A stretch of 32,000 nucleotides of DNA from Microcystis aeruginosa NIES-2549 (GCF_000981785.2 NZ_CP011304.1:3750001-3782000); one strand, 5' to 3'; shown: positions 9,792 through 29,499, numbered from the stretch's first letter. The notes: generated by a model not told the origin, from the letters alone. Numbers and translations are program-made.

Positions 9792-10003
9792 TAGGGTTTG
9801 CTGAATAAATCTAAAAACCTTGTTGGATAGGAATTTTAGACTTTTTGTCAATCAAAAAGTGCCAGACCTTGGGGTGATCGGGGGGGGGAAGTTTAGGGAC
9901 TTTTTCCCTGAAAATTAGGTAATTGACCAGATGAAAATCGGTAAAACCCTACACCCCACACCCCACACCCTACCCCCACGAAAAACTTATTCAGCAAACC
10001 CTA
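9792..10003 (+). mobile_element. MITE family A, copy 1 (~212 bp)
   Basis: Terminal inverted repeats TAGGGTTTGCTGAATAA ... TTATTCAGCAAACCCTA. No ORF. By eye it is roughly 80% identical to the reverse complement of 27897..28100. Confidence 0.75.
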
Positions 10004-13000
10004 AATACAGTTCCTTATTTGGTTTTGCCAAAGATTCATTAACTGAGTTTCCATTGCTTTAATCCAGGTGGCCGTTTGAAATAGTGGTAAATCTCCCTGT
10101 TTTTGCTGCCATTGCTGAGTGAATTGGCGCAGTTCCTCCCAGTGGGTCCCCCAATAAATTGCTTGGACTTGATAGGATTCCCTACTTTCACAGACAAAAG
10201 ATTCTAAACCAGCAGCGTGGCAAATACTCATCCCCATTCGCGAAGCAAAAGTATCTCCAGGACAAGTCAGTAAAGGAACGCCAGCTTGAATGGCGCAAAC
10301 AGAAGTCGCTCCGCCATTATACAGAAACGTATCTAAAAACAAATCTGCCTGCCGACACACAGAGATGAATTCCCATGGCGAACGCTTAACTAAAAAGACA
10401 AGACGCTCTGGGTCAACGCCTGCGGTTTTCGCTTTTGTTCGCAGGGTTTGGGAAATATCCTCAGAAGACTCCGCCAACCACAGCACAGCGTTGGGTACAG
10501 CTTGCAAAATCTTGAGCCAGCAAGCAAAGAGTTCAGGCGACCATTTATCAGTGCGATTAAAACAAGCATAGACAAATCCCTCGTCTGGTAATCCCAGTTC
10601 CGACCGCGATGGCGGTGGTTCAGAAAAAGACAAAGGAGTAGTAACAAAAACGTGGGGTAATTCCACTAAAGTTTCCCTGTAATATTCCGCCAAATCTGGG
10701 GGAATTAAAAAGCGATCGCCCAGGATGTAGGGGATAAAATCTGCACCAAGGGTATCAGGATAACCCAGATAGTGGAGTTGCAGGGGAGCCGGTTGAAGTG
10801 CGAGAATTTCGGGACGACAGAGATTCGTATAACCACAGAGGTCGATTAGGATATGAATGCCATCACTGTGGATTTTCTCGGCGGCGGCTTCCACGCTCAG
10901 GGGGGCGATTGTTTCATAGTGGTCACACCCGGACCGAATCTGCTCCGTAATCTCATCAGTCGTATTCGACAGGGAATAGGCATATACCTCAAATTGATCG
11001 CGGTTATGGTATGCAAAAAGCTCCCGAATTAAAAAGCCGACAGCATGGTTGCGAAAATCGGCGGAGAGATAGCCAATCCGTAGTTTAGACGGTGTTTCTC
11101 GCGGGAAAATAAACCCTAAGCGGCGCTTCGACTCTACCATCCGCGCCTCGATACTTTTTGCCCAGTGACGGTTAAAGTCCCGGTGGAGAGTGAGAGAAGC
11201 GGGAAAACTGTTAAGAGAAAGGGGAGGTAGGGCCGCGTTTTCCTGGGTTTGAAGATAGTTCTCGAGCCGCGCTAAAAGCGCCGACATCCGTTGGTCATAG
11301 TCGTCCCAATCGCAAAGAGCAACTTGAAGATGTTCTCGCCGATATAGCACATTCAAATTATCCGGTTCCAGAGTTAAAGCATAATTAAAACACTCTAACC
11401 CCTTATTCGGATTGCCTTCCGCTTCATAAATTTCTCCAAGATTGCGATAAATACCTGGGATTTCGGGGTTGAGATCTAATGCTTTCTTAAAACAGAATTT
11501 TGCCCCGGTGATATTATTAACGCTCATTAGCAATCCCCCTAAATTCTGGTAGGCGGCGATATAATTTTCATCCAGACGGATTGCTTCTCGGTAATATTCC
11601 ATCGCTGCCGCAATATCTCCCAATTGCCGATAGAGATCCCCCAGCGCCAAATGCAAAGAAGCGCAAGGAAGGTAAATTAATCCCTGCTGCAAAAGTTGGA
11701 TTGCTTCTTGATAGCGGTGTTCATTGCTATACAATCCTCCCAAATTCTGATAAGCTACTAATAAATTCGGTTGCAGTTGAATCGCTTTTTGAAAAGCTTC
11801 AATTGCCTCTGGTAAATTCCCCTCCAGTTGCCACAAACTCCCTAAATTGCAATAGGTTGGAGCGTAATTGGGAAGTAGTTGGAGCGCTGATTGATAGAGG
11901 GCGATCGCCCCTGAATAATCCTGAAGTGCTACCCGTTGTTTCGCCTCCTTAAAAATAGTTTTTAGTTGAAATTTAAGGGAAAGATCAACTTTCTCATCCG
12001 CCTTTGCAAGTGTCAAATTAGATGGCTCTTCTTGGGAAACACTTGCAAGAGTTTTGTTCAGTAATTCCTGAAACAGTTGGTAAGATTCTTGGGCAAATCT
12101 TTGGGGTTGCCATAAGGTCGCTTGATGGTCGGTTTGTTTCGATTGCTGTAAGCGTTCTCGAATTTGTTGGCGAAGTTCAGAATCAGTCCCGTATCGCACT
12201 CCCCACTCAATATATTCTTCCCAACTGTAGGCGACACCTTCATCAATTCCCAAATTTTGCAGGAACGAATAGCCAAAACGAGATACCGCCTGTTTTCCGC
12301 AGCGAGTAACTAACGGTACATTAAACCAAAGAAACTCTAAATTGTGGCTCCCGCCATTGTAAGGATAACTGTCTAAACCCACATCACCAACATAGTAAAA
12401 TAGGCGATGTTCTTCCTCTAATTTTGGGCGTTCTAACCAACGACAGCGTTGGGGATCAACCCCAGCTTTTTCGCACTCTTCTTGATAGATTGTATGCCGA
12501 TAACTATAGCCTTTGTGGAGCAAAATACTGTTAGGTACTTGTTTGAGAATCGCCACCTGAGATTTCACCAAATCGCGGGTCAGTTTTTTCCCCGGTTTCA
12601 CCGAAAGATAAACCACCGTATCTGGTTCAATTTGTAAATTCTGACGCAATGTCTCACGCTCAAATGCTAGTACCGGAAAATCTTCGATCGCTATACCAGT
12701 CTCAGATAGATAAAGTAATTGTTCTTGATAGTATTGTTGTAACTCTGGCGGGTGGGTACGGCGATCGCAGAGGTAATAATTTTTCTCAGAAATATAAGGC
12801 GGCTCGCAACCTAACCAGGACACCACCACCGGCGCTGGTCGTTGGGCCAAAAGTAAAGCGTGCTTAAAATTCATTAAAGAATCAAGGTCAATCAAAATAT
12901 CGAGCCGATCAGCCCTAAGTTTTTCTAGAATTTCTTGCGGTGTTTGCTGAGAAAGATCGCTAAACTTTGCCCCTGTATGTTGAAAAGAATGCGTCAGATC

Positions 13001-15379
13001 ATCAGTCGCAGCAACACCAGTTTGGTACAAGAAAAGATAGGGGGTTAACTGCGCCCAGCCTTGAAGAATACTGCGACAACACCAACCGACAGAATGTCGT
13101 CGAAAATGCTGGGAAATAACGCCGATGCGTAATCCATCATTCCTCGTTTTCTCTTCTAATTCCCCACTATTTTGAGGAGAACTAGAGACCGGAAAAAAAT
13201 CAAGACAGTGCTGATGGTAAGCTTGGCTAATCAGTTGACTAAGGCGACTATTAGCAGCCGGATCGTCTCGCAAGTAGGGCAAACTAAAGAGGAGATATTG
13301 GTAAAGTTTTTGGGCTGCTTTTTCTTGTAAGTCTAGCTCCGGCTTTAAGAGGAGTTCTTCTAGGGCAGAAAAATACTGTTGGGACTGAGCATAAAAGCCA
13401 AATTCTAAATAGCCAGCCGTCAAGATGGTCAGCAGAACAATTCGATCAGATAGAGAAATTTCGCTATGGGGATAGTCCTGAATCTGGGCGTAGATTGTCC
13501 CCAGATTGTCATAAGCAGTTATCAAATCTGGTTTAATTTCTAACGCCCGTTGAAAAGCTTGAATCGCTTCTGATAATTTCCCCTCAAGTTGCCACAAACT
13601 CCCCAAATTGCAATAGGTTGGGGCGTAATTGGGAAGTATTTGTAGCGCTGATTGATAGCAGGCGATCGCCCCTGAATAATCCTGAAGCGCTACCCGTTGT
13701 TTCGCCTCCTCAAACAGGCTTTTTATTTGAACTTTGAGCAAAGGATCAGCCTTCTCCTGTGACGCTTGCTCTCGCAAATCAGGATGACCTTTGGTGGCCA
13801 ACATCTGATTACCCCAAGCATCAATCTTCCAGCCTCGCCCCTTGAGAAGGGGTTCTAAAGCCGCACTCGTCCAGCGGCTAGGGGTATAGAAAACGCGGAG
13901 AGTCTTTATCCCAGCATCCCAGCAATCCTTTTCCAACACACTCACTAAACGGGTAGCAATCCCTTGGTGACGGTAAGACGGCTCGACAAATAAAGAAATG
14001 ATTTCTGCTGTACCATCTGGCGAGTATTCACCAATCACAAAACCGAGTAAATCTCCCTCAAGCGCAGCAGATACACCGACAATTTCCCCCTTGGGGGACT
14101 GATTTTTCCAGCGGACCTGCAAACTCGGGAACATGATCCCATCATAAGGGGCGAGGCTTTCAGGATTAAGGTGATAGACCCGTTGGAAATTAATCGCAGC
14201 ATTGAGAGGCAGGTCCAGTCGGTTCCAGGCTTCCTCTTCCCCTTTAGCAAGCATCGTTGTGGCTTCCGATGGGGAAGTAGTCGCCTCTGGTACGCCAGCG
14301 ATGGGTGCTTTCGGTCCAAGACTGGGACGCTTAACCGTTGGTCTTGTCACCATTAACCCCTGACTTTCCGGGAAACAGACCAAACGTTCAATATCTTCAT
14401 TTTGTAAACCCAATAACTTCGGTCGTATCACCCCGGGTAAGACCACCACATCGAATAATTCTTCAATAGTGTCGTTAAAAATCAGAGAGTGGACAATTTC
14501 TCCGGTATTTAAATCCACTACCATTAGACCGCACAGAGCCTTATGTCCCGTTGCTAGAAGGCGTTCTTCCAACACTAGACCGCTAAACACCGCCGACCGT
14601 AACTTAGAAAGTCCGACAAAGGCATAGTTTTTCCAAAAGGCAAGCCCTCGCACAAAAGCCGAACAAAAGGTGATGGGATAAAATTTTTCCGCTTCAATAT
14701 AACCCAATTCTCCTGAACCCGAATTTAGCACCCAGAGTTTATCTCGATAAAAACGGGGAGAGTGGGGCATTGACAGTCCCCGCATGATAATTTCGTTACT
14801 GGGAAGATGGAGTAAAATGCCGCCATCCTGACGACAATTTCGCCAACCGGCTCCCTGATTAGTCCCACTGCAAGCGCTCAGATAAATTGGCTGTCCTTCT
14901 ACCAACGCCAATCCGTTTAAATGACAGCGGTCTTCCGCCCGCAGCTCAGAAATAAACGGCGGTTGCCAAATCGGGTTAAAACTATATCCAGTTTTGAGTT
15001 CAGCGAGACAACTAAAATCAGTATTAACAAATATTAGTTTTCCTTCTCCATCTAGTGCCACATCATGGACATTTACATTCCCCGTGGTGTAGGCTGAACT
15101 CGGTACATAAAGGCGATCGCCGTCTTGAAAAGTTTCTCCCGGTACGAGGCGGTTTTCCAGAGTCCAAATTTGATAGCGGGTACTCATGTAGAGAGAAGTG
15201 GAATCAGCATACAGTCCCATCGGTTTGTCGAACAAACGTTCCTGTAGCGTAATGCGCCCATCTTCATAACTTCCCAACATAATCAGTCGATTAGTTTGGT
15301 AAGTCGTGAAAGCAACACTAATTTTTTCTTGTTGTAACCAAGCTCCCAAATTCGGTGAGCATTCAATTTTTAAATCCAT
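10001..15379 (-). CDS. 1,792-aa multidomain protein: TIGR03032-like beta-propeller / GNAT acetyltransferase / TPR / GT41-like (divergent) / TPR / GT41-like (OGT-SPINDLY type)
   Basis: - aa 1-335 match the conserved TIGR03032 pattern (ISVAFTTYQ..., YVPSSAYTTGNVNVHD, EDRCHLNGLAL, GLSMPHSPRFY, LNSGSGELG, CGLMVVDLNTGEIVH).
- aa ~430-530 are GNAT (YRHQGIATRL).
- There are two TPR blocks.
- There are two LRIG(V/Y)xSxxFRxHxVG...YNGG(S/A)T modules typical of glycosyltransferase family 41.
- ATG start. Confidence 0.88.
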   Translation of the reverse strand: MDLKIECSPNLGAWLQQEKISVAFTTYQTNRLIMLGSYEDGRITLQERLFDKPMGLYADSTSLYMSTRYQIWTLENRLVPGETFQDGDRLYVPSSAYTTGNVNVHDVALDGEGKLIFVNTDFSCLAELKTGYSFNPIWQPPFISELRAEDRCHLNGLALVEGQPIYLSACSGTNQGAGWRNCRQDGGILLHLPSNEIIMRGLSMPHSPRFYRDKLWVLNSGSGELGYIEAEKFYPITFCSAFVRGLAFWKNYAFVGLSKLRSAVFSGLVLEERLLATGHKALCGLMVVDLNTGEIVHSLIFNDTIEELFDVVVLPGVIRPKLLGLQNEDIERLVCFPESQGLMVTRPTVKRPSLGPKAPIAGVPEATTSPSEATTMLAKGEEEAWNRLDLPLNAAINFQRVYHLNPESLAPYDGIMFPSLQVRWKNQSPKGEIVGVSAALEGDLLGFVIGEYSPDGTAEIISLFVEPSYRHQGIATRLVSVLEKDCWDAGIKTLRVFYTPSRWTSAALEPLLKGRGWKIDAWGNQMLATKGHPDLREQASQEKADPLLKVQIKSLFEEAKQRVALQDYSGAIACYQSALQILPNYAPTYCNLGSLWQLEGKLSEAIQAFQRALEIKPDLITAYDNLGTIYAQIQDYPHSEISLSDRIVLLTILTAGYLEFGFYAQSQQYFSALEELLLKPELDLQEKAAQKLYQYLLFSLPYLRDDPAANSRLSQLISQAYHQHCLDFFPVSSSPQNSGELEEKTRNDGLRIGVISQHFRRHSVGWCCRSILQGWAQLTPYLFLYQTGVAATDDLTHSFQHTGAKFSDLSQQTPQEILEKLRADRLDILIDLDSLMNFKHALLLAQRPAPVVVSWLGCEPPYISEKNYYLCDRRTHPPELQQYYQEQLLYLSETGIAIEDFPVLAFERETLRQNLQIEPDTVVYLSVKPGKKLTRDLVKSQVAILKQVPNSILLHKGYSYRHTIYQEECEKAGVDPQRCRWLERPKLEEEHRLFYYVGDVGLDSYPYNGGSHNLEFLWFNVPLVTRCGKQAVSRFGYSFLQNLGIDEGVAYSWEEYIEWGVRYGTDSELRQQIRERLQQSKQTDHQATLWQPQRFAQESYQLFQELLNKTLASVSQEEPSNLTLAKADEKVDLSLKFQLKTIFKEAKQRVALQDYSGAIALYQSALQLLPNYAPTYCNLGSLWQLEGNLPEAIEAFQKAIQLQPNLLVAYQNLGGLYSNEHRYQEAIQLLQQGLIYLPCASLHLALGDLYRQLGDIAAAMEYYREAIRLDENYIAAYQNLGGLLMSVNNITGAKFCFKKALDLNPEIPGIYRNLGEIYEAEGNPNKGLECFNYALTLEPDNLNVLYRREHLQVALCDWDDYDQRMSALLARLENYLQTQENAALPPLSLNSFPASLTLHRDFNRHWAKSIEARMVESKRRLGFIFPRETPSKLRIGYLSADFRNHAVGFLIRELFAYHNRDQFEVYAYSLSNTTDEITEQIRSGCDHYETIAPLSVEAAAEKIHSDGIHILIDLCGYTNLCRPEILALQPAPLQLHYLGYPDTLGADFIPYILGDRFLIPPDLAEYYRETLVELPHVFVTTPLSFSEPPPSRSELGLPDEGFVYACFNRTDKWSPELFACWLKILQAVPNAVLWLAESSEDISQTLRTKAKTAGVDPERLVFLVKRSPWEFISVCRQADLFLDTFLYNGGATSVCAIQAGVPLLTCPGDTFASRMGMSICHAAGLESFVCESRESYQVQAIYWGTHWEELRQFTQQWQQKQGDLPLFQTATWIKAMETQLMNLWQNQIRNCI

Positions 15380-15552
15380 AAAAAATACATGACTTACGAA
15401 ACTCCCAGGACGGGAGCACTGTTTCCTCCTCCAGTTGACAAATTTCTCGCCAGAATTCTTGTTCGGAAGCGCTGGGTTCAGTCATAGTCTGGTTACGACT
15501 TGACCCAAGCGGCGATTCAGTAGGCGTAATCCCTCACCTTGATGGTCTATAC

Positions 15553-15578
15553 CCTGGCGCAACGAAAGCTGCGCCAGG
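15553..15578 (-). terminator. 9-bp-stem hairpin downstream of the PEP-CTERM gene (weak terminator candidate)
   Basis: CCTGGCGCA-acgaaagc-TGCGCCAGG, 56 nt after the stop at 15634. There is no clear U-tract on the minus strand, hence the low confidence. Confidence 0.3.
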
Positions 15579-15633
15579 CTCTCAAGGAACAGACTGAGGA
15601 ATGCAGGTTTGAATTTCTAGTTAGACTGACTTT

Positions 15634-16290
15634 CTAAGCATCCTTGTTTTGTTTCTTATTCCTTTTGCCATGCTTTTTTTTAAGAATCGGGAGAGCGACT
15701 AAAACCACGCCAGTACCAAGAATAGTTGAGGGTTCGGGAATCTGCTCAGGGGGTTCGGGAATCTGCTCAGGGGTGAAGTTAAAATTAGTAATCGTTAAAA
15801 CCCCAGGCCCGCCGGTGTTGTTGTCGGTTTCGACAATAAAACCAAAAGTTTGTCCCGCCGTCAGAGACAAGGAAGAGACATGGTAATTATCGCCGTTTTG
15901 GAACCCTAAATAAGTGGGAGTGTTATTGATAATGTAACCCCCGCGATCGCCCGCCGCGCCTGGTGTATAAGGAACGTTTTCACCAGCAAAGGTCCAAGCA
16001 AAAGAAACTGTCCCTCCCTGAGTAATGGGGCCTGCTATCCAGTTGGTAGTTCCAGATGCCAAACTCTCATCATTTCCACCAGTCAAAACTACAGTTCCAC
16101 TTGCGGCATTAGTGGTATCTACTGAGCCATCAGCATCACTGTTATTGAGAGTAAAATTCCCTGGAGCAAATATGCCAGCGAATCCAAGAGCTAAGGCAGG
16201 GGAATGAAACCCGACAACCGCAGCAGTGGCGACAGTTGCTAGGAGAAAACTCCTGGAAGGCTTTAGACGAGAAACGAAGGAAGTATTCAT
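15634..16290 (-). CDS. PEP-CTERM sorting-domain secreted protein
   Basis: N-terminal signal peptide (LLATVATAAVVGFHSPALALG). C-terminal PEP motif, hydrophobic helix and basic tail (PEPSTILGTGVVLVALPILKKKHGKRNKK). ATG start. Confidence 0.85.
   Translation of the reverse strand: MNTSFVSRLKPSRSFLLATVATAAVVGFHSPALALGFAGIFAPGNFTLNNSDADGSVDTTNAASGTVVLTGGNDESLASGTTNWIAGPITQGGTVSFAWTFAGENVPYTPGAAGDRGGYIINNTPTYLGFQNGDNYHVSSLSLTAGQTFGFIVETDNNTGGPGVLTITNFNFTPEQIPEPPEQIPEPSTILGTGVVLVALPILKKKHGKRNKKQNKDA
15731..15772. repeat. perfect 21-bp tandem duplication (GGTTCGGGAATCTGCTCAGGG x2) inside the PEP-CTERM signal
   Basis: Direct reading of the sequence. It encodes PEQIPEP-PEQIPEP on the minus strand. Confidence 0.9.
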
Positions 16291-16345
16291 TGGTTTTGCG
16301 ATTAATTAATTGGCGAAAGACTGATGAATTAGTGGTTGATGAAAT

Positions 16346-16458
16346 GGCGTTGCTGATTTGAGATATGAATCTTCTCTTGTGGAATTTTTAAAACCTAGAC
16401 CCAAACTAACTTTTCGATGGGTGCAAGGTTGGCATTCATACCTTGATTCAGCAACGCC
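16346..16458. mobile_element. small MITE-like element, family E (~113 bp)
   Basis: Inverted termini GGCGTTGCTGA(t)T ... (a)TTCAGCAACGCC. Its left ~45 nt recur at 1859..1905 (downstream of cydB) with a few mismatches. Confidence 0.45.
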
Positions 16459-16472
16459 GATGAAATTACCCC

Positions 16473-17183
16473 TTAAATTGTGAAGTAATGATTGACATTT
16501 AAGGTGCCAGCAGTAGTAGGAGCATTCAATAACGAGCCAAACTTGACCAGCAGATCTGCTGTACCATTAAAGGCGGCTGTTCCATCATTTACCGATAGGT
16601 AGTAGGAGGAGCCATACCTGAATAAAAGTGATTCATTGGCTTGTAAATTGGCAGCAGCATAAGCCTGACTTGTGGCATTGCTTAAACTGGTTGCGGTTAT
16701 CACGCCGGCGTAGGAGAGTTTACTGGGGAGGGAGGATAATTGCAGGCGATCGCCCTCGGTCGAATTAAAGCGAGAAATAGTATCCATCGAGTTAAGCAGG
16801 GAATCGCTGAAGTTGGGATAAAAGAAGGTGTCCTTTCCGCTATAACCCAGGAGGTTATCAGCACCAGGCCCCCCTTCAAAAGTATTGGTGCCGAAGTAGC
16901 CAAATAGGTTATCATCTCCCCCCAATCCTCGAAATACTTCATCGGGGACAGTCGTCGGTGGTGCCGCCAGATTACCTGAGAGGTTATCTTTGCCTGAAGT
17001 TCCCGTAAAAGTAATCGCCCCAGTTGTATTATCGTCATTGATGATCTTGCCTGTTATGCTTCCCGATGAAATGGTTGTTCCCACCGGATTACTCAGGATC
17101 AAGGTGAGGGTTTCGTCAGGCTCTACGTCTGTATCGCCTTGAACCGGAACAGTGATTGTCCCGGAAAGCTGACAGGGGGACAA
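16473..17183 (-). CDS. detached C-terminal fragment of the giant surface-protein gene (end of a Calx-beta domain, RTX-like GGxGxD repeats, T1SS-type C-terminal target-like tail)
   Basis: The ORF opens with a TTG that lies inside the MITE terminal repeat. From 17168 downward it continues the interrupted Calx-beta domain (TITVPVQGDTDVEPDETLTLILSNP...INDD). This is followed by GGDDNLFGY.GTNTFEGGPGADNLLGYSGKDTFFY...DTISRFNSTEGDRLQLS. Confidence 0.7.
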   Translation of the reverse strand: MSPCQLSGTITVPVQGDTDVEPDETLTLILSNPVGTTISSGSITGKIINDDNTTGAITFTGTSGKDNLSGNLAAPPTTVPDEVFRGLGGDDNLFGYFGTNTFEGGPGADNLLGYSGKDTFFYPNFSDSLLNSMDTISRFNSTEGDRLQLSSLPSKLSYAGVITATSLSNATSQAYAAANLQANESLLFRYGSSYYLSVNDGTAAFNGTADLLVKFGSLLNAPTTAGTLNVNHYFTI

Positions 17184-17400
17184 GCTGGCTGAACTCCTTA
17201 CATCACAAGCTTTTTGGGGTGTTGGAGCGAAAAAGTTCGATGCAGCTCACCCCCCGTTGTTGATAAATATTTCTAGTAAGCTCGCCCAAATCCCTGATTA
17301 TTTCGTTAGCTTTTTGGCTGAAAGCGATGTATCTGTTTGTAACTGAGGAGCCTCAAAACCTTTGTGGACAATGCTTTGAGAGGTCTTGTCCCCCTGTCAG
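17169..17400. mobile_element. MITE family C (232 bp) inserted in the giant gene
   Basis: Perfect 16-bp TIRs: CTGACAGGGGGACAAG (17169..17184) and CTTGTCCCCCTGTCAG (17385..17400). They are flanked by a 9-bp direct duplication CCCGGAAAG (17160..17168 and 17401..17409). No ORF. Confidence 0.9.
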
Positions 17401-20400
17401 CCCGGAAAGAGTACCGGCAGTGAGGCGAAGTGTGCCGCTAGTGCTGACATAATCATTGCCAGCCGTGGCGGTTCCCGCAGTGACACTATAATCGACACTC
17501 ACATCTTGCCCACTACGAGCAGAGAGGCTGACTTGGAAGATCAACTGGGTTGTTGTGCCGCTATTGCCTTCCAGCACTTGGGAAGGTTGTGCCGAGATGA
17601 TGGGAAGTGAATCATTATCGTTGATTGTCCCAGTGCTGGTACTGTTGGCGATCGCCCCGTTGGTCGGGTTGCTGAGATTAACGCTGAAGGTTTCCGGGGT
17701 GGGTTCGTAGAGGGTATCGTCGTTGATTACCACACTAATCGTTTTACTGCTATCTCCCGTGCCAAAGCTAAGGCTACCGCTGGTGCTGACGTAGTCTCCA
17801 TTAGCAATGGTACTGCCGAAAGCCGTTCCGTTGGCGGTGGCATAGTTGACTGTAGCAGTGCTGGTTCCGTTACTAATTGGATCGGTGGCGGTGACGGTAA
17901 AGATGGCAGTGCCAGCATTTTCATTGACTGTTACATTGTTAATGCTGAATACGGCTTGGTCAATGACCCCGATGGTAACGGTTTTGTTGGTTGATACCCC
18001 ACTGCCGTTTTGATCGGTGGCAATGACATCAATACTGTAGCTAGATTTAGTTTCGTAATCTGCGGAGGCTTTGAGACGTACTTCTCCGTTATTACTGCCA
18101 ATTGTGAAGGCACTGGCATCGTTTCCGCCTAGACTCCAAACGATTTGGTTAACTGGGCCATCGGTATCGGTGGCGGCGGCGGTATAGATGAGGGTGCTGA
18201 TGGAGGCATTTTCTAGTACCGTAGCGCTGTTGCTGCTGGTGATGACGGGTGCTTGGTTTGTATTTGTATCATCATTTTGAATTGTTCCCGTCGCCGTTGC
18301 TGTAGTAATCGTGGCATTGGTCGGGGTGTCAAGGGTGACAGTAAACCCTTCATCGGGTTCAACAGTCGTGTCTCCTGAGACATTGACGGTGATGGTTTGA
18401 CTGGTTTCATTGGCGGCAAAACTCACTGTCCCAGAAGGTAAGATTCCCCCAACAAAGTCAGTAGCATTGGCTTGGTTAGTCCCAGTCCCGGTAACAGTCC
18501 AGTTGGCGCTACTGCTACCAGAGGTATCCCCACTACGAGTGACGGTGAAGGTAAAGGCTTTTGTCCCTGTATTTCCTTCGGTTTGGCTGAGAGTCGAGGG
18601 GGTGATTGCCAAAGCTGGATCATCATCATCATTTTGAATTGTTCCCGTCGCCGTTGCTGTAGTAATCGTGGCATTGGTCGGGGTGTCAAGGGTGACAGTA
18701 AACCCTTCATCGGGTTCAACAGTCGTGTCTCCTGAGACATTGACGGTGATGGTTTGACTGGTTTCATTGGCGGCAAAACTCACTGTCCCAGAAGGTAAGA
18801 TTCCCCCAACAAAGTCAGTAGCATTGGCTTGGTTAGTCCCAGTCCCGGTAACAGTCCAGTTGGCGCTACTGCTACCAGAGGTATCCCCACTACGAGTGAC
18901 GGTGAAGGTAAAGGCTTTTGTCCCTGTATTTCCTTCGGTTTGGCTGAGAGTCGAGGGGGTGATTGCCAAAGCTGGATCATCATCATCATTTTGAATTGTT
19001 CCCGTCGCCGTTGCTGTAGTAATCGTGGCATTGGTCGGGTTAGAAAGGGTGACGGTAAACTCTTCATTTGTTTCAACAGTCGTGTCTCCTGAGACATTGA
19101 CGGTGATGATTTGACTGGTTTCATTGGCGGCAAAACTCACTGTCCCTGACGGTAAGGTTCCCCCAACAAAGTCAGTAGCATTGGCCTGATTAGTCCCAGT
19201 CCCGGTAACAGTCCAGTTGGCGCTACTGGTACCAGTGGTATTCCCACTGCGAGTGACGGTGAAGGTAAAGGCTTTTGTCCCTGTATTTCCTTCGGTTTGG
19301 CTGAGAGTCGAGGGGGTGATTGCCAAAGCTGGATCATCATCATCATTTTGAATTGTTCCCGTCGCCGTTGCTGTAGTAATCGTGGCATTGGTCGGGGTGT
19401 CAAGGGTGACAGTAAACCCTTCATCGGGTTCAACAGTCGTGTCTCCTGAGACATTGACGGTGATGATTTGACTGGTTTCATTGGCGGCAAAACTCACTGT
19501 CCCAGAAGGTAAGATTCCCCCAACAAAGTCAGTAGCATTGGCTTGGTTAGTCCCAGTCCCGGTAACAGTCCAGTTGGCGCTACTGGTACCAGTGGTATTC
19601 CCACTGCGGTTGACGGTGAAGGTAAAGGCTTTTGTCCCTGTATTTCCTTCGGTTTGGCTGAGAGTCGAGGGGGTGATTGCCAAAGCTGGATCATCATCAT
19701 CATTTTGAATTGTTCCCGTCGCCGCTGCTGTGGTAATTGTGGCATTGGTCGGGGTGTCAAGGGTGACAGTAAACCCTTCATCGGGTTCAACAGTCGTGTC
19801 TCCTGAGACATTGACGGTGATGATTTGACTGGTTTCATTGGCGGCAAAACTCACTGTCCCAGAAGGTAAGATTCCCCCAACAAAGTCAGTAGCATTGGCT
19901 TGGTTAGTCCCAGTCCCGGTAACAGTCCAGTTGGCGCTACTGGTACCAGTGGTATTCCCACTGCGGTTGACGGTGAAGGTAAAGGCTTTTGTCCCTGTAT
20001 TTCCTTCGGTTTGGCTGAGAGTCGAGGGGGTGATTGCCAAAGCTGGATCATCATCATCATTTTGAATTGTTCCCGTCGCCGCTGCTGTGGTAATTGTGGC
20101 ATTGGTCGGGTTAGAAAGGGTGACGGTAAACTCTTCATTTGTTTCAACAGTCGTGTCTCCTGAGACATTGACGGTGATGATTTGACTGGTTTCATTGGCG
20201 GCAAAACTCACTGTCCCTGACGGTAAGGTTCCCCCAACAAAGTCAGTAGCATTGGCCTGATTAGTCCCAGTCCCGGTAACAGTCCAGTTGGCGCTACTGC
20301 TACCAGAGGTATCCCCACTACGAGTGACGGTGAAGGTAAAGGCTTTTGTCCCTGTATTTCCTTCGGTTTGGCTGAGAGTCGAGGGGGTGATTGCCAAAGC

Positions 20401-23400
20401 TGGATCATCATCATCATTTTGAATTGTTCCCGTCGCTGTGTTCGCCGTACCTACTGTATAACCGGTTCCCCCAGCGAGGGTCAAAATGACGGTTTCATCC
20501 GGTTCCATTGTTGTGTCAGTAGTGGGGTCAACCGTTACAGTCGCAGTCGCTGACCCAGCCAAGAAGTTGACACTGGTGGGAATAGAAGCGTAATCGGTTC
20601 CATTGGTTGCTGTACCACTGACTGTATAGTTAACCGTCAAAGGATTGGTTGTTAGTCCTGTACGGGTGAAGGTATAAACCAGATTTGTTGTCCCGTCTTC
20701 GGTAACACTTCCAGGCGCAACCGCAACCGTAACACTGGTATCGTCATTTGTAATTGTTCCCGTCGCTGTGCTCGCCGTACCTAAGGTATAACCGGTTCCC
20801 TCAGTCAGGGTGAAAATGACGGTTTCATCCGGTTCAACTATTGTGTCAGCAGTGGGGTCAACCGTTACAGTCGCAGTTGCAGAATTAGCCGCGAAGGTGA
20901 TGGTTTTTCCGGTTCCGGGGGTTGCTCCACTGTAGTCGCTGCTCTCGGCTGTTCCGGTGATGCTGTAGTTGACCGTCAAAGGATTGTTTATTAGTCCTGT
21001 ACGGGTGAAGGTATAAACCAGATTTGTTGTCCCATCTTCATTAACACTTCCAGGCGCAACCGCAAGGGTGATGCCAGGTAAATCGTCATTCGTAATTGTT
21101 CCCGTCGCCGTTGCTGTCGTAATATAGGCGTTCGTCGGGCTAGAAAGGGTGACGGTAAACCCTTCATCGAGTTCAACGTCGGTGTCTCCTGACACATTGA
21201 CGGTGATGGTTTGACTGGTTTCATTGGCGGCAAAATTCACCGTCCCTGACGGTAAAGTTACTCCAAAGTCAGTAGCATTGGCTGGATTAGTCCCAGTCCC
21301 GGTAACAGCCCAGTTGACGCTACTGCTATCAGAGGTATCCCCAGTGCGGGTGACGGTAAAGGTAAAGGCTTTTGTCCCTGTATCTCCTTCGGTTTGGCTG
21401 GCATTAGTCGCCGCAATCGCTAACCAAGGAACATTCTGATAAAACAGCGTGTTGCCAAATTCTTCTCCGACAAAGGCATCCAGGTCGCCGTCGCCGTCAA
21501 TATCCACTAACGTCGGCTTGACAAAAGTAGACACCTTCGTCAGACCGAAGGGGTTGGTGGAGGGAGCAGCGAAGGTGGGCGCACTGGCACTCCCCGTATT
21601 CCGATAAAACAGCGTATTGCCAAGGGAGTTGCCAACGAAGGCATCCAGGTCGCCGTCGCCGTCAATATCCACTAACGTCGGCTTGGCATACAAACCCACA
21701 TTCGTCAGACCGAAGGGGTTGGTGGAGGGAGCAGCGAAGGTGGGCGCACTCGCACTTCCCGTATTCCGATAAAACACTATATTGCCATCGCTGTTTCCGG
21801 CGAAGGCATCCAGGTCGCCGTCGTTGTCAATATCCACAAACGTCGGCTTGGCATTAGCACCTAAATCTGTCAGACCGAAGGGGTTGGTGGAGCGAGCAGC
21901 GAAGGTGGGCGCACTGGCACTCCCCGTATTCCGATAAAACAGTATATTGCCGTCTCCGTTGCCGACGAAGGCATCCAGGTCGCCGTCGCCGTCAATATCC
22001 ACAAACGTCGGCGCGGCAGCCACCGCCACAGTCGTCAGACCGAAGGGGTTGGTGGAGGGAGCGGCGAAGGTGGGCGCACTCGCACTCCCTGTATTCCGAT
22101 AAAACAGCGTATTGCCATCGAAGTTGCTGACAAAGGCATCCAGGTCGCCGTCGCCGTCAATATCCACTAACGCCGGATGGGAAAAACTAAGCACATCCGT
22201 CAGACCGAAGGGGTTGGTGGAGGCAGGGGCGAAGGTGGGATCTTGTTGCGCGATGTCATTATCGGTAATTTGGGCAACGACGTTAGGGATACTTCTGCCG
22301 TTATAGCCACTGTCGCTACTGCTGACTGTGGTGGTAATTACGCCCCGGTGCGGCCCTTCCCCAATCGTGTCATTGACTGCGGTTACAGTCACAGTTTGAG
22401 GGGTATTCCAGTTAGCCGAGGTGAAGGTCAGGCTTGTCTGACTCAGGCTTAACTGGTTGCCCGGATTCAGGGCAAGGATGACATCTGCTGTGGGAGCCCC
22501 CTTTAGAGCAACGGTATAGGTGGCTGTTGCGCCGCTTTCGGTTACTTGCAGTAGTGTATTGCTGAGGATGATTCCGGGATCATCATTGAGAATTGTTCCC
22601 GTCGCCGTTGCTGTCGTAATCGTGGCATTCGTCGGACTAGAAAGGGTGACGGTAAACCCTTCATCGGGTTCAATAGTCGCGTCTCCTGATACATTGACGG
22701 TGATGACTTTACTGGTTTCATTGGCGGCAAAACTCACTGTCCCAGAAGGTAAGATTCCCCCAAAGTCAGTAGTATTGGCTGGGTTAGTCCCAGTCCCGGT
22801 AACAGCCCAGTTAGCGCTACTGGTACCAGAGGTATTCCCACTGCGGGTGACGGTAAAGGTAAAGGCTTTTGTCCCTGTATCTCCTTCAGTTTCGCTGGCA
22901 TCAGTCGCCGCAATCGCTAAGGCAGTATCATCATTCGTAATTGTTCCCGTCGCTGTGCTCGCCGTACCTAAGGTATAACCGGTTCCCTCAGTGAGGGTGA
23001 AAATGACGGTTTCATCCGGTTCAACTATTGTGTCAGCAGTGGGGTCAACCGTTACCGTCGCAGTCGTTGACCCAGCCAAGAAGGTGATGGTTTTTCCGTC
23101 TCCCGGGGTTACTCCACTGTAGTCGCTGCTATCGGCTGTTCCGGTGATGCTGTAGTTAACCGTCAAAGCATTGGTTGTTAGTCCTGTACGGGTGAAGGTA
23201 TAAACCAGATTTGTTGTCCCATTTTCGGTAACACTTCCAGGCGCAACCGCAAGGGTGATGATAGGGAAATCGTCATTCGTAATTGTTCCCGTCGCTGTGT
23301 TCGCCGTACCTACTGTATAACCGGTTCCCCCAGCGAGGGTCAAAATGACGGTTTCATCCGGTTCCATTGTTGTGTCAGTAGTGGGGTCAACCGTTACCGT

Positions 23401-26400
23401 CGCAGTCTCTGACCCAGCCGCGAAGGTGATGGTTTTTCCGGTTCCGGGGGTTGCTCCACTGTAGTCGCTGCTATCGGCTGTACCACTGACTGTATAGTTA
23501 ACCGTCAAAGCATTAGTCGTTACTCCACTACGGGTGAAGGTATAAACCAGATTTGGTGTTCCGTCTTCGGTAACACTTCCAGGCGCAACCGCAACCGTAA
23601 CACTGGTATCGTCATTTGTAATTGTTCCCGTCGCTGTGCTCGCCGTACCTAAGGTATAACCGGTTCCCTCAGTGAGGGTGAAAACGACGGTTTCATCCGG
23701 TTCAACTATTGTGTCAGTAGTGGGGTTAACCGTTACAGTCGGTGCAGTCGCTGATCCAGCCGCGAAGGTGATGGTTTTTCCGGCTCCGGGGGTTGCTCCA
23801 ATGTAGTCGCTGCTATCGGCTGTTCCGGTGATGCTGTAGTTGACCGTCAAAGCATTGGTTGTTGGTCCTGTACGGGTAAATGTATAAACCAGATTTGTTG
23901 TCCCGTCTTCGGTAACACTTCCAGGCGCAACCGCAAGGGTGATGCTAGGTAAATCGTCATTCGTAATTGTTCCCGTCGCCGTTGCTGTCGTAATATAGGC
24001 ATTCGTCGGGCTAGAAAGGGTGACGGTAAACCCTTCGTTAGCTTCAAAGTCGGTGTCTCCTGACACATTGACGGTGATGGTTTGACTGGTTTCATTGGCG
24101 GCAAAATTCACCGTCCCTGACGGTAAGGTTTCCCCAAAGTCGGCAGCATTGGCCTGATTAGTCCCAGTCACGGTAACAGCCCAGTTGACGCTACTGCTAT
24201 CAGAGGTATCCCCACTGCGGGTGACGGTAAAGGTAAAGGCTTTTGTCCCTGTATCTCCTTCGGTTTGGCTGGCATTAGTCGCCGCAATCGCTAACCAAGG
24301 AACATTCTCATAAAACAGCGTGTTGCCCACCCAGTTGCCAATAAAGGCATCCAGGTCGCCGTCGCCGTCAATATCCACTAACGTCGGCGCGGCATCATAA
24401 ACCACATCCGTCAGACCGAATGGGTTGTAAGAGGGAGCAGCGAAGGTGGGCGCACTGGCACTCCCCGTATTGCGATAAAACAGCGTATTGCCAAGCTCGT
24501 TGCCGATGAAAGCATCCAAGTCGCCGTCGCCGTCAATATCCACAAACGTCGGCTGGGCATAAGTAACCACATTCGTCAGACCGAAGGGGTTGGTGGAGGG
24601 AGTAGCGAAGGCAGGCGCACTGGCACTCCCGGTATTGCGATAAAACAGCGTATTGCCATAGTAGTTGCCAATAAAGGCATCCAGGTCGCCGTCGTCGTCA
24701 ATATCCACTAACGTCGGCACGGCATCATAAATCACATCCGTCAGACCGAAGGGGTTGGTGGAGGGAGCAGCGAAGGTGGGGGCGCTGGCACTCCCCGTAT
24801 TCCGATAAAACAGCGTATTGCCCTCTTCGTTTCCGATGAAAGCATCCAGGTCGCCGTCGCCGTCAATATCCACAAACGTCGGCGCGGCATACAAACCCAC
24901 ATCCGTCAGACCGAAGGGGTTGGTGGAGCCAGCAGCGAAGGCAGGCGCACTCGCACTTCCCGTATTCCGATAAAACAGCGTATTACCAAAGAAGTCGCCG
25001 ACAAAGGCATCCAGGTCGCCGTCGTTGTCAATATCCACTAACGTCGGCGTGGTATAATCACCCGCATCCGGCAGACCGAAGGGGTTGGTGGAGGCAGGGG
25101 CGAAGGTGGGATCTTGTTGCGCGATGTCGTTATCGGTGATTTGGGCAAGGACGTTAGCAACAGGTATGCCGTTATAGACACTGTCGCTACTGCTGACTGT
25201 GGTGCTAATTACGCCCCGGTGCGGTCCTTCCCCAATCGTGTCATTGACTGCGGTTACAGTCACAGTTTGGGGGGTATCCCAGTTAGCCGAGGTGAAGGTC
25301 AGGCTTGTCTGACTCAGGCTTAACTGTCTGCCCGGATTCAGGGTAAGGATGACATCTGCTGTGGGAGCATCGTTAAGAACAACGGTATAGGTGGCTGTTG
25401 CGCCGTCTTCGGTTACTTGCAGTAGTGTATTGCTGAGGGCGATTTTGGGATCATCATTGAGAATTGTTCCCGTCGCCGTTGCTGTGGTAATCGTGGCATT
25501 CGTCGGGCTAGAAAGGGTGACGGTAAACCCTTCATTAGTTTCAATGTCGATGTCTCCTGACACATTGACGGTGATGGTTTTACTGGTTTCATTGGCGGCA
25601 AAACTCACTGTCCCAGAAGGTAAGATTCCCCCAAAGTCAGTAGCATTGGCTGGGTTAGTCCCAGTCCCGGTAACAGCCCAGTTGGCGCTACTGGTACCAG
25701 AGGTTTTCCCACTGCGGGTGACGGTAAAGGTAAAGGCTTTTGTCCCTGTATCTCCTTCAGTTTGAATTGCATTCGTCGCCGCAATCGCTAAGCCAGGATC
25801 GTCATTTGTAATTGTTCCCGTCGCTGTGCTCGCCGTACCTACTGTATAACCGGTTCCCTCAGTGAGGGTGAAAACGACGGTTTCATCCGGTTCAAATGTT
25901 AGATCAAAAACGGGGTCAACCGTTACAGTCACAGTTGCAGAATTAGCCGCGAAGGTGATGGTTTTTCCGGTTCCGGGGGTTGCTCCACTGTAGTCGCTGC
26001 TATCGGCTGTTCCGGTGATGCTGTAGTTGACCGTCAAAGCATTGGTTGTTGGTCCTGTACGGGTGAAGGTATAAACCAGATTTGTTGTCCCATCTTCATT
26101 AACACTTCCAGGCGCAACCGCAAGGGTGATGCTAGGTAAATCGTCATTCGTAATTGTTCCCGTCGCCGTTGCTGTCGTAATATAGGCATTCGTCGGGCTA
26201 GAAAGGGTGACGGTAAACCCTTCATTAGCTTCAAAGTCGGTGTCTCCTGACACATTGACGGTGATGACTTGACTGGTTTCATTGGCGGCAAAATTTACTG
26301 TCCCTGACGGTAAAGTTACTCCAAAGTCGGCAGCATTGGCCTGATTAGTCCCAGTCCCGGTAACAGCCCAGTTGACGCTACTGCTATCAGAGGTATCCCC

Positions 26401-27324: not shown

Positions 27325-27354
27325 AGTCAATTAATTTTGTCGGATGTTTCTGGA

Positions 27355-27384
27355 ATTTTAGTGTATTCTCTCAATTTAAGTCAA
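27355..27384 (-). promoter_or_regulatory. candidate sigma70-type promoter of the giant gene
   Basis: On the minus strand: TTGACT (27384..27379), an 18-nt spacer, then TAAAAT (27360..27355). It lies ~30 nt upstream of the ATG at 27324. Pattern match only. Confidence 0.3.
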
Positions 27385-27461
27385 TAACAAAAGCAAAAGT
27401 ATGGATTTAAGTAGCTGGTTATAATTAAATTTAAAATGGATTTCAGGTTCGATCCCCCCTG

Positions 27462-27677
27462 CCCCCCTTGATAAGCTATCCATTATAGGGATCTTTCTTA
27501 ACAATTTTTTCAGTAAGCACTCCAACTCTTATCCTGACTTGATTTCAGTTTTTTCTTTGTCAGTAAGGGTGTCAACAAGGAATATTACCAATTGTTAACC
27601 GAGTCTTGAAAGCCTTGTGCTACAAAGGTTTGAAATGTTAAGAAAGATGTGACTAAAGGACAGCTTGATAAGGGGGG
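27462..27677. mobile_element. MITE-like element, family D (~216 bp)
   Basis: Imperfect inverted termini of about 45 bp: CCCCCCTTGATAAGCTATCC...GATCTTTCTTAACA versus TGTTAAGAAAGATG...GGACAGCTTGATAAGGGGGG. No ORF. Confidence 0.5.
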
Positions 27678-27708
27678 TGTCTGATAATTTTTAACGCCTA
27701 CCTACTTA

Positions 27709-27813
27709 TACTAAATCCGTTGAGGATAGGCTACATATCAGGAGAGGCAAGAGGCAGAAGGCAAGAGGCAAAAGGGGGAATAAATAATCAGTTTTTAATA
27801 ACCAGATTTAGTA
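27709..27813. mobile_element. MITE family B, copy 1 (105 bp)
   Basis: TIR TACTAAATC...GATTTAGTA with a GGCAAGAGGCAGAAGGCAAGAGGCAAAAG core. It is flanked by the 3-bp duplication TTA (27706..27708 and 27814..27816). A second 105-bp copy lies at 28488..28592. Confidence 0.8.
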
Positions 27814-27896
27814 TTAATACAAGTGTCCCCTTTAAAGGAGCCTAATTTCAATCCATAGTCAAAACTCACTCCCACCGAGTAAAGTCCCAGAATATT

Positions 27897-28100
27897 TAGG
27901 GTTTGCGGCAAAAAGTTTTTCCTGGTGGCAGGGTGTGGGGTGTAGGGTTTTACTGGTTTTGAGGTGGCCAATTACCTAATTTTCAGGGAAAAAGTGCCTA
28001 AATTTTCCCCCCGATCACTCCCAGTCCTGGAAATTTTTGATTTCAAAAAAGCCTAAAGATATTATCCAACAAGGTTTTTAGATTTATTCAGCAAAGCCTA
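27897..28100 (-). mobile_element. MITE family A, copy 2 (~204 bp), inverted relative to copy 1
   Basis: Its reverse complement aligns end to end with 9792..10003. It shares the TIR, the AAATCTAAAAACCTTGTTGGATA segment, the CCCTGAAAATTAGGTAATTG segment and the CACCCCACACCC tract. Confidence 0.75.
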
Positions 28101-28487
28101 TTTAAACCCAAATTTTCGATAAAATAATCAAGAATTACCCCAGCATTGTAAAATCAGGTTTACTGACGGTTTTAAAGCAGGAGAATTTGATTTATGTTGT
28201 AGTCAAAAGACCTTAGTTTATTATTCAGAACAACAGATTAAACGGGTAAGATTTGTTAGACGTGCTGACGGTTATTATTGCCAGTTTTTAATTGACGTAG
28301 AACGGCAAGAATACCATAAACCAACGGGACAAATAACAGGAATTGACTTAGGGTTAAAGGAATTTTATACCGACGCTCAAGGCAATACTGCAGAGAATTC
28401 ACGTTATTTAAGAAAGTCAGAAAAACGACTGAAAAAAGCACAAGGGAGATTATCAAAACAATTTCGCAAAGGAAAGAAACAGTCTAA

Positions 28488-28592
28488 TACTAAATCCGTT
28501 GAGTATATGCTACATATCAGGAGAGGCAAGAGGCAGAAGGCAAGAGGCAAAAGGGGGAATAAATAATCATTTTTAAATAACCGAATTTAGTA
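28488..28592. mobile_element. MITE family B, copy 2 (105 bp), nested in tnpB
   Basis: Same TIRs and core as 27709..27813, flanked by the 3-bp duplication TAA (28485..28487 and 28593..28595). Removing the element plus one TAA (108 bp) rejoins the tnpB frame: ...RKGKKQSNNYHKQPIKVARLH... Confidence 0.88.
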
Positions 28593-29058
28593 TAACAATT
28601 ATCACAAGCAACCGATAAAAGTAGCTAGGCTTCATCTTAAAGTGTCAAGACAACGTAAAGACAAAGCAATTAAAGACGCTTTGGCGTTAGTCCAGTCTAA
28701 TGATCTGGTAGTTTATGAAGCTTTAAAGGTAAGAAACTTAGTCAAAAACCGTAAACTTGCCAAGTCGATTTCTGATGCTTCTTGGTATCAATTCACTGAA
28801 TGGTTTGAATTTTTTCCAAGATTTATCGGATTGTTTGTATTGCTGTTCCTCCCCATTTCACTAGCCAAGATTGTTCAGTTTGTGGGACGAGAGTTCAAAA
28901 AACATTAAGCACTAGAACTCATCAATGTCCTAACTGTAAAACAATCTTAGATAGGGATCATAATGCAGCAATAAATATTCTTAAAAAAGGGTTAAAATAT
29001 TTGGGAAATCATCTCAATGCCTCGACCCTTCGGCGGAGCTTCGGGGGCCATTTCGCGG

Positions 29059-29134
29059 TTCGACTTTGCTCACCGTCGAAGTCGAGGCATTGACCCTTCG
29101 ACTTTGCTCACCGTCGAAGTCGAGGCATTGACAC
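29059..29134. repeat. 38-nt tandem duplication (TTCGACTTTGCTCACCGTCGAAGTCGAGGCATTGAC(C/A)C x2), hairpin-forming
   Basis: Direct reading. Each unit contains TCGACTT/AAGTCGA arms. GTCGAGGCATTGA is the inverted complement of TCAATGCCTCGAC at 29012..29024. Confidence 0.9.
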
Positions 29135-29156
29135 TGAGCGAAGTCGAAGTGTCAAC

Positions 29157-29326
29157 GGTACTGTTGGGTAAACAGAAACCGACCCAAACGCCTTGGGAGA
29201 GTCCGGCCTCTGGATTTTGAATGGAGACATTGAGAATCTAAGCTGTCTCGTTGAACAAGGAATTTCCGATAGTGATAGGTCAAGAATCCCCCGTCAAGCT
29301 ACGCTGTGACGGTAGGAGTATGTCAA
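29157..29326 (+). ncRNA. remnant IS605-family right end / candidate TnpB omega-RNA (reRNA) scaffold
   Basis: It occupies the 3' end of the tnpB reading frame plus the sequence downstream of it. There is a subterminal hairpin CCGTCA-n10-TGACGG (29291..29312). The element appears to end in ...TATGTCAA (TCAA at 29323..29326), like IS608-type right ends. The position matches where omega-RNAs are encoded in TnpB elements. No covariance model was run. Confidence 0.3.
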
Positions 29327-29499
29327 AACGGCAAGAGGCTGACATCAACACCATGGACGACAAAGAGAAGGACAACCTAAAATCTTTTCGCTAATTTTGC
29401 CATAGACTGCACCCTTTGCTTCTAAAATGGGCTATTGCGGCTAGACCCCAATTGGTCAAGCATTTGCCCGTAGACTGAAAAAAGCACGTTATAAAGATT

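Follow-up and report, generated by a model that had tools for sequence, protein, structure and literature searches.

O-glycosyltransferases of family GT41 that join tetratricopeptide repeats (TPRs) to a C-terminal GT-B domain are represented by human OGT, Arabidopsis SPINDLY, Xanthomonas XcOGT, Thermobaculum TtOGT (5djs) and Synechococcus elongatus Ogt. In human OGT, the asparagine ladder of the TPRs binds peptide substrates. The S. elongatus enzyme is required for pilin glycosylation and acts on an exported surface protein (PMC9306852). Soluble GT41 enzymes of the HMW1C/NGT type (H. influenzae HMW1C, A. pleuropneumoniae NGT) are encoded next to the gene of a secreted repeat or adhesin protein of very large size, which they modify at multiple sites in the cytoplasm before export (PMC3012730, PMC3983070). 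The RTX toxin-activating acyltransferases (HlyC/RtxC) are small cytoplasmic enzymes that modify a neighbouring RTX protein before type I secretion. These are the known systems closest to one in a 32,000-nucleotide stretch of Microcystis aeruginosa NIES-2549 (NZ_CP011304.1:3750001-3782000, hereafter the window), where a minus-strand gene (10001..15379) encodes, as a single uninterrupted open reading frame (ORF), a protein of 1792 amino acids (aa) plus stop. Its modules follow in the order TIGR03032, GNAT, TPR, GT41(X), TPR and GT41(Y).

The N-terminal module belongs to TIGR03032/DUF4915 (PF16261), a large, highly conserved orphan family with 3410 representative clusters at 50% identity (E <= 0.001) and members in at least 598 species. 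A search of about 8 million papers found none on TIGR03032 or DUF4915. The original prediction, made from the window sequence, described the six modules and missed a giant FG-GAP/RTX gene upstream of the enzyme gene. Comparative genomics suggests that the whole TIGR03032 family decorates FG-GAP repeat exoproteins. The literature search likewise found no description of this association, to which the window protein serves mainly as an entry point. FG-GAP/VCBS repeat exoproteins are abundant yet poorly understood bacterial surface proteins, and action on them would be the first hypothesis for the function of the family.

TIGR03032 genes and their FG-GAP/RTX neighbours

The neighbourhoods of TIGR03032 genes were compared at 75 species-level loci from species-representative genomes. 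An FG-GAP and/or RTX repeat gene was directly adjacent to the TIGR03032 gene at 43 of these loci. The share of such genes among the neighbours fell with gene distance from 0.34 at the adjacent position through 0.12, 0.07, 0.03 and 0.02 to 0.004 at six genes or more. Adjacent genes compared with those four or more genes away gave an odds ratio of 34 (Fisher p = 2e-24). Lineages among the loci include Cyanobacteria, Alpha-, Beta- and Gammaproteobacteria, Planctomycetota, Desulfobacterota, Binatia, Verrucomicrobiota and Bacteroidota. Stand-alone TIGR03032-GNAT genes of Nitrosomonas, Methylobacter and Anabaena are directly flanked by FG-GAP and RTX genes, as confirmed by Pfam, and in Methylobacter a separate TPR-GT41 gene lies upstream as well.

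Enzyme subtype tracks the repeat subtype of the neighbour. GNAT-bearing enzymes had a neighbour with the 55-aa repeat "DIDGDGDLDAFVGN..GNTLFYRNTGSA..P.F…NPFGL" in 14 of 16 cases, and this repeat is the same as that of the giant protein in the window. With the GNAT-less enzymes, the neighbour carried the 80-aa integrin-type "SYVVFG" repeat in 17 of 24 cases. The reverse test, which started from the repeat, found TIGR03032 within two genes at two of the four loci sampled, and one of these FG-GAP proteins bears a type IX secretion system (T9SS) tail. At L092:6871-9305, a stand-alone DUF4915 gene is immediately upstream of a class-A FG-GAP protein with the T9SS Por_Secre_tail domain. The association is thus with the repeat and not with one secretion route. 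TIGR03032 is the first gene of real type I secretion system (T1SS) operons at two loci (L082, L047). A third candidate of this kind, L066, was not counted, because its TolC-like neighbour belongs to a resistance-nodulation-division (RND) efflux pump.

Modules of the window protein and probable origin of its tandem tail

Module calls were made with curated NCBIfam and Pfam hidden Markov models (HMMs) at their own cut-offs, and the GT41 segments were also scanned singly. Every one of the six modules predicted for the ORF was found in this way. The first ~335 aa had been assigned to TIGR03032, and they score 440.2 bits against that model (cut-off 251.5) over aa 4-334 (14378..15370, minus strand, as are the modules below), corresponding to profile positions 2-333 of 335. 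The DUF4915 score is 420.5 bits against a threshold of 35. The domain had also been called propeller-like, and this agrees with an AlphaFold2 model of aa 1-545 (mean predicted local distance difference test score, pLDDT, 86.9; mostly >95 in the propeller), for which Foldseek returned six-bladed beta-propellers. The matches are generic folds at ~10% identity, namely YWTD (LRP6, nidogen), NHL, SGL, luciferin-regenerating enzyme, Vgb lyase and PAL, so that no enzyme class can be assigned to the propeller.

Sequence conservation in this domain is extreme. Propellers from different phyla are 45-53% identical in most pairs. The window protein agrees at all 40 columns that are invariant in an alignment of 35 sequences from several phyla and contains the perfectly conserved family motifs EDRCHLNG and GLSMPHSPR. 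Residues invariant family-wide include H105, D106, E149, D150, R151, C152, H153, N155, R180, H206, S207, R244, R261, E307 and D310. H105, H153, H206 and R244 fall at the putative starts of the innermost strands of successive blades. This placement suggests that the invariant polar residues mark an active or metal site in the central pocket. More tentatively, TIGR03032/DUF4915 may represent a new, cytoplasmic class of propeller enzymes, with this family as its first member. They would carry out a primary and probably metal-dependent modification specific to FG-GAP/VCBS repeat exoproteins, to be elaborated by GT41, GT2, GNAT and sulfotransferase modules fused to them or encoded nearby. If so, a widespread and unrecognised bacterial pathway would decorate integrin-like repeat surface proteins.

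A disordered linker rich in Pro, Ser and Thr (aa 348-393, 14201..14338; model pLDDT <50) joins the propeller to the GNAT acetyltransferase domain (aa 397-545, 13745..14191). PF00583 matches aa 426-494 with 42-46 bits (cut-off 20.7). The motif YRHQGIATRL, quoted earlier as the GNAT signature, is present at aa 469 and contains the motif A acetyl-CoA loop R470-H-Q-G473-I-A475, i.e. R470-x-x-G473-x-A475. This half of the model has a pLDDT of ~90 over aa 397-545 and matches RimI (5isv), 1y9k and 1yvk in Foldseek with target-normalised template modelling (TM) scores of 0.63-0.69. The domain thus resembles RimI-type N-acetyltransferases and differs in this from HlyC/RtxC; no HlyC/TAAT acyltransferase family is among the Pfam/NCBIfam hits of the window protein.

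Two tails follow, each of N-terminal TPRs and a GT-B GT41 domain, as in OGT and its relatives. TPR block 1 (aa ~548-640, 13460..13738) has ~2.5 repeats, two of them with the OGT-type x-N-L-G asparagine, and precedes GT41 module X (aa 641-1103, 12071..13459), of a rarer subtype found in eight clusters. TPR block 2 (aa ~1135-1354, 11318..11977) has ~6 repeats, four with this asparagine, and precedes module Y (aa 1355-1792, 10004..11317), of the common subtype. Scanned singly, the segment with X (aa 640-1115) gave 115 bits against GT41 and matched T. terrenum OGT, human OGT and SPINDLY at 1e-24 to 1e-22. The best TtOGT match was 1.2e-24, and SPINDLY aligned in a single stretch (segment aa 110-438 to 482-814). 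The C-terminal segment with Y gave 267 bits across both Rossmann lobes and matched human OGT at 1.6e-68 in two stretches. X and Y are about 28-30% identical to each other.

Conservation of Lys and His residues in each GT41 half, proposed earlier as a check, was determined in nine X-type and 46 Y-type sequences. The position of human OGT H558 is His in 9/9 X-type and 45/46 Y-type sequences, and that of K842 is Lys in 9/9 and 46/46. At the H901 position X-type sequences have His (9/9) and Y-type sequences Tyr or Phe, with Phe in the window. The T922 position is His in X (9/9) and Thr in Y (45/46), the D925 position is Glu in X (9/9) and variable in Y, and the N838 position is variable in X and Asn in Y (45/46). 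The UDP-GlcNAc contacts of human OGT (Q839, K898, H901, H920, T921, T922 and D925) are only partly kept, in different subsets in X and Y, and variation at these positions is found among bacterial GT41 enzymes too. Compared with human OGT, the X module of the window protein has His at T922 and Glu at D925, and its Y module has Phe at H901 and does not conserve K898 and D925; the Int-D insertion is absent from both. Two non-identical GT41 modules in one chain, joined to a propeller and a GNAT domain, set the window protein apart from all these TPR-GT41 enzymes. Since the catalytic His and Lys equivalents are kept in both modules, X appears to be an active subtype rather than a decayed copy. Both modules look catalytically competent, with differing nucleotide-sugar pockets. 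The original prediction had left X as either regulatory or of different donor specificity; conservation of the H558, K842 and H901 equivalents in 9/9 sequences speaks against a regulatory or decayed copy, and a difference in donor or acceptor specificity fits better.

The fusion had been described as unusual, and the TIGR03032 domain as normally a stand-alone protein of ~350 aa. Neither description holds widely. A full-length search returned more than 100 cyanobacterial clusters, 1000-1300 aa in length, in which DUF4915 occurs together with TPR and GT41; GNAT is present in some and missing in others, and part of them also have GT2, sulfotransferase or GT11. Among the best 150 family representatives, 65 are stand-alone (~340-440 aa) and 78 are longer fusions; stand-alone proteins make up only three of the closest 50. 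Among relatives of the N-domain, the nearest 120 (58-67% identical, 407-583 aa, typically about 490 aa) come from cyanobacteria, Nitrosomonas and methanotrophs and are mostly recognisable as DUF4915 plus GNAT. The architecture is common in cyanobacteria and the protein is already deposited; only the tandem X and Y tail is rare. Within its family, the window protein thus has a full-length, high-scoring N-domain with all family-invariant residues, and differs from stand-alone members in belonging to the GNAT-bearing subfamily and in its two GT41 tails. The tandem GT41 layout was seen in the Microcystis cluster, in P0122 (1915 aa, 46% identical, same order) and in the GNAT-less P0165 and P0178. 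A second Microcystis paralogue is represented by P0232. Fusion partners of TIGR03032 across the family are GT41, GT2, GNAT, DUF707 and sulfotransferase, in several domain orders: GT41 comes first in P0186, P0189, P0391 and P0501, and GNAT last in P0163, P0170 and P0171. The Rosetta-stone link of TIGR03032 to protein or glycan modification is strengthened by this range of partners.

A 257-nt direct repeat occurs in the two tails with 82% nucleotide identity. Copy 1 (13500..13756) encodes the first ~85 aa of TPR block 1, and copy 2 (11739..11995) encodes the start of TPR block 2 and marks the join of the two GT41 cassettes; the remainder of the tails is anciently diverged. Two Dolichospermum/Anabaena-type proteins, P0144 and P0138, share a 95%-identical head of ~645 aa (propeller, GNAT and three TPRs). 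The change after it is abrupt: one protein continues with an X tail and the other with a Y tail, and these tails are 29% identical. GT41 tails thus appear to be exchanged as cassettes, with the breakpoint inside the TPR array. From this pattern we infer that the X and Y cassettes stand one after the other in the Microcystis protein, both with a TPR start of their own. Soluble protein glycosyltransferases with swappable tails and two different nucleotide-sugar pockets per chain are of interest for glycoengineering. Paralogous genes also occur in clusters: in Nostoc calcicola (L008) two TIGR03032-GNAT-TPR-GT41 genes flank a single FG-GAP/RTX gene, and at the metagenomic locus of P0122 (L088) a second TIGR03032-GNAT gene follows the double-tail gene. 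Such clusters would provide raw material for cassette recombination. The Nostoc pair was considered as an X-type and Y-type precursor of the tandem and rejected, both genes being Y-type; the X subtype was found in none of the genome loci examined.

Proposed function of the window protein

The giant exoprotein gene lies upstream of the enzyme gene on the same strand. Its body is a 3325-aa ORF (17401..27330) with class-A FG-GAP repeats (FG-GAP_3 in 12 stretches), Calx-beta in 13 stretches and one cadherin domain. The C-terminal piece (16473..17168, read now as a 236-aa ORF at 16473-17183) comprises the end of Calx-beta, RTX repeats and a 'bluetail', with matches to HemolysinCabind, Peptidase_M10_C and bluetail. 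The last of these is an NCBIfam model of putative cyanobacterial surface proteins, which covers aa 179-234 of the 236-aa ORF with 48.7 bits (cut-off 21) and follows the RTX repeats, at the expected place of a type I secretion signal. The N-terminus of the giant protein is not hydrophobic, and with its C-terminal RTX nonapeptide repeats it shows the features of a type I substrate. Body and C-terminal piece are separated by a 232-bp insertion (17169..17400) resembling a miniature inverted-repeat transposable element (MITE), which is without an ORF. Its 16-nt terminal inverted repeats (CTGACAGGGGGACAAG) are perfect, and the target site is duplicated over 9 bp (17160-17168 and 17401-17409). M. panniformis (L001) has no insertion at this site, and without it the two parts form one uninterrupted gene of ~3538 aa.

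Enzyme and giant gene also vary together between strains. Comparison with Microcystis strains L094-L097 defined an 18.5-kb presence/absence block (10792..29326) that holds most of the enzyme gene, a PEP-CTERM protein gene and the giant gene. In many Microcystis strains the block is missing as a unit, the first ~1529 enzyme codons are gone, and a 268-aa C-terminal remnant of the enzyme is found directly beside serA. Gain or loss of both genes as one block was counted as support for their pairing. In Microcystis, enzyme and giant adhesin form a strain-variable island. Surface glycoproteins of Microcystis have been implicated in colony formation and bloom ecology.

We propose that the window protein is a cytoplasmic multi-enzyme tailoring protein for the upstream giant FG-GAP/Calx-beta/cadherin/RTX exoprotein, built on an ancestral core of propeller and GNAT with the X and Y cassettes in series; we regard the case for and against this proposal as evenly balanced. 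The N-terminus is not hydrophobic in 239 of 240 family proteins, with the PEP-CTERM control positive. Chemistry with acetyl-CoA and UDP-sugars is cytoplasmic, and together with the lack of signal peptides this places the action of the enzyme in the cytoplasm. The unfolded repeat protein, rich in Ser and Thr (28%), would be captured there by the TPR superhelices through their asparagine ladder and/or by the propeller. X and Y, with their differing sugar-nucleotide pockets, would attach O-linked sugars, and GNAT would acetylate the protein itself or an amino sugar. The propeller may catalyse a step specific for FG-GAP repeats or dock onto the repeats. Export in NIES-2549 would follow, probably by a T1SS that recognises the RTX/bluetail C-terminus.

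The proposal has precedents. Adhesins are glycosylated in the cytoplasm by GT41 enzymes of the HMW1C type (PMC3012730, PMC3983070), glycosylation is known for the cyanobacterial RTX proteins SwmA and oscillin (PMC3034196), and Microcystis MrpC has been proposed as a target of a SPINDLY-type transferase (PMC2442094). The proposed scheme works on the same lines as that of HMW1C/NGT. NGTs are without TPRs and N-glycosylate N-X-S/T sequons, whereas the window enzyme has TPRs and the giant protein has 72 sequons, about as many as expected by chance (~70); N-linked modification in the NGT style is therefore unlikely and was rejected. The export routes also differ, two-partner secretion in the one case and probably a T1SS in the other. 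Lysine acylation as by HlyC is unlikely as well, in view of the missing HlyC-family match and the low lysine content (1%) of the giant protein.

Several observations weigh against the proposal and the association behind it. No directly adjacent FG-GAP/RTX gene was present at 32 of the 75 loci, and two of the four loci of the reverse test had no TIGR03032 gene nearby. FG-GAP/RTX calls at the 75 loci were made by regular expressions and phmmer, with a Pfam check at six of them (L002, L004, L006, L090, L092 and the window), and the loci are not phylogenetically independent. Foldseek and a search with the N-domain family profile against all PDB sequences, which gave only noise (best E = 1.2), detected no relative of known function for the propeller, so that its role could be non-catalytic. 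In NIES-2549 the MITE splits the gene of the proposed substrate and parts the body from the RTX/secretion end; the enzyme may therefore now lack a functional partner or have other targets. T1SS genes (ABC transporter, membrane fusion protein and outer membrane protein) are absent from the window ORFs. The joint loss in other Microcystis strains goes back to one event and is not an independent co-loss.

A non-enzymatic propeller would be in line with some of these observations. The domain would then be dedicated to handling FG-GAP repeats in the cytoplasm, as an adaptor or chaperone. It would bind them, hold them in an unfolded state fit for secretion and pass them on to the exporter or to the enzymes fused to it or encoded nearby, with catalysis by GNAT and the two GT41 modules only. 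T1SS substrates must remain unfolded before export, and the proposed substrates are repeat proteins that would need this state. The top structural matches are ligand-binding YWTD propellers (LRP6, nidogen) and not enzymes, and stand-alone TIGR03032 genes sit beside FG-GAP/RTX genes and head T1SS operons where no other enzyme is present. However, cross-phylum conservation, at about 47-53% identity, is extreme. Motifs such as EDRCHxNG and MPHSP hold the invariant residues, which are polar ones of the kind used in catalysis (His, Asp, Glu, Cys, Arg and Asn) and more typical of an active or metal site. The family also occurs beside an FG-GAP protein with a Sec-dependent T9SS tail and is not tied to a single export route. 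The adaptor role is on balance unlikely. An artefact can be set aside with far more assurance. Mis-assembly or sequencing error could have joined separate genes, or the ORF could be a decaying pseudogene, given that the 257-nt repeat could mislead an assembler, that mobile elements abound in Microcystis genomes (PMC2442094), and that the MITE is 1.8 kb from the ORF. Yet an identical protein is on public record for M. aeruginosa NIES-2549 (AKE66130.1/WP_066030130.1, "TIGR03032 family protein"), and 1792-aa versions are found in NIES-3806, NIES-3787, Ma_MB_F_20061100_S20 and M. panniformis WG22, i.e. in at least five independent assemblies including one complete genome. The 46%-identical P0122 has the identical double layout, and family-invariant residues are kept in all modules. 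The ORF is hence real; the artefactual fusion that the original prediction had named as a possible refutation is effectively refuted, and the chance of it is negligible.

Two further explanations concern the target. The protein could be a general regulator of the OGT/SPINDLY kind that glycosylates many intracellular proteins, its FG-GAP neighbour being unrelated to the GT41 modules. Bacterial GT41 enzymes with several intracellular targets are known (Y. pestis HmwC, PMC11329713; T. terrenum OGT, PMC4683255), several family members are labelled 'protein O-GlcNAc transferase' in UniRef, and in NIES-2549 the enzyme gene is intact despite the interrupted giant gene. The FG-GAP association, however, follows the TIGR03032 core, whether GT41 is fused to it, encoded separately next door (L004, L090, L043, L053, L085) or absent. 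Moreover, the gene is accessory, with the 268-aa remnant in many Microcystis strains, which is unexpected for a global regulator, and we hold this explanation to be improbable. The target could instead be a cell-surface polysaccharide or the small PEP-CTERM protein encoded directly upstream (15634..16290, minus strand; 218 aa with a signal peptide, a hydrophobic N-terminus and a cyanobacterial PEP-CTERM sorting signal; TIGR04155, 24 bits against 21.6). Its gene is placed between those of enzyme and giant protein in both the window and M. panniformis, PEP-CTERM-like tails are seen at seven other TIGR03032 loci, and the fusion partners GT2 and sulfotransferase are typical of glycan assembly. Against this, PEP-CTERM neighbours are rare (7 of ~860 neighbour genes) and without clear enrichment next to TIGR03032, the window TPR arrays retain the OGT-type asparagine ladder for peptide substrates, and the FG-GAP association is far stronger and matched by subtype. 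This explanation is accordingly quite improbable, and the giant FG-GAP protein stays our preferred target.

Other features of the window

A promoter and terminator scan around the enzyme gene gave hits no more numerous than in shuffled sequence. Between the giant gene and serA, ~2.2 kb (27331-29499) contain no ORF of 120 aa or more, and the G+C content is 0.35 over 28001-29000, compared with about 0.45-0.54 elsewhere. Within this region, upstream of the giant gene, a 174-nt stretch (27505-27677) recurs with 96% identity at L094:10999-11171, downstream of the enzyme remnant, and may be a small repeated or mobile element.

An acetolactate-synthase-like thiamine pyrophosphate (TPP) enzyme with a C-terminal zinc-ribbon at aa 592-617 is encoded at 7867-9720 on the plus strand, its gene being convergent with that of the enzyme. 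On the same plus strand, a 229-aa ORF (2991-3680) shows an odd combination of an LRAT/NlpC-P60-type domain and a PspA/IM30-like coiled-coil segment.

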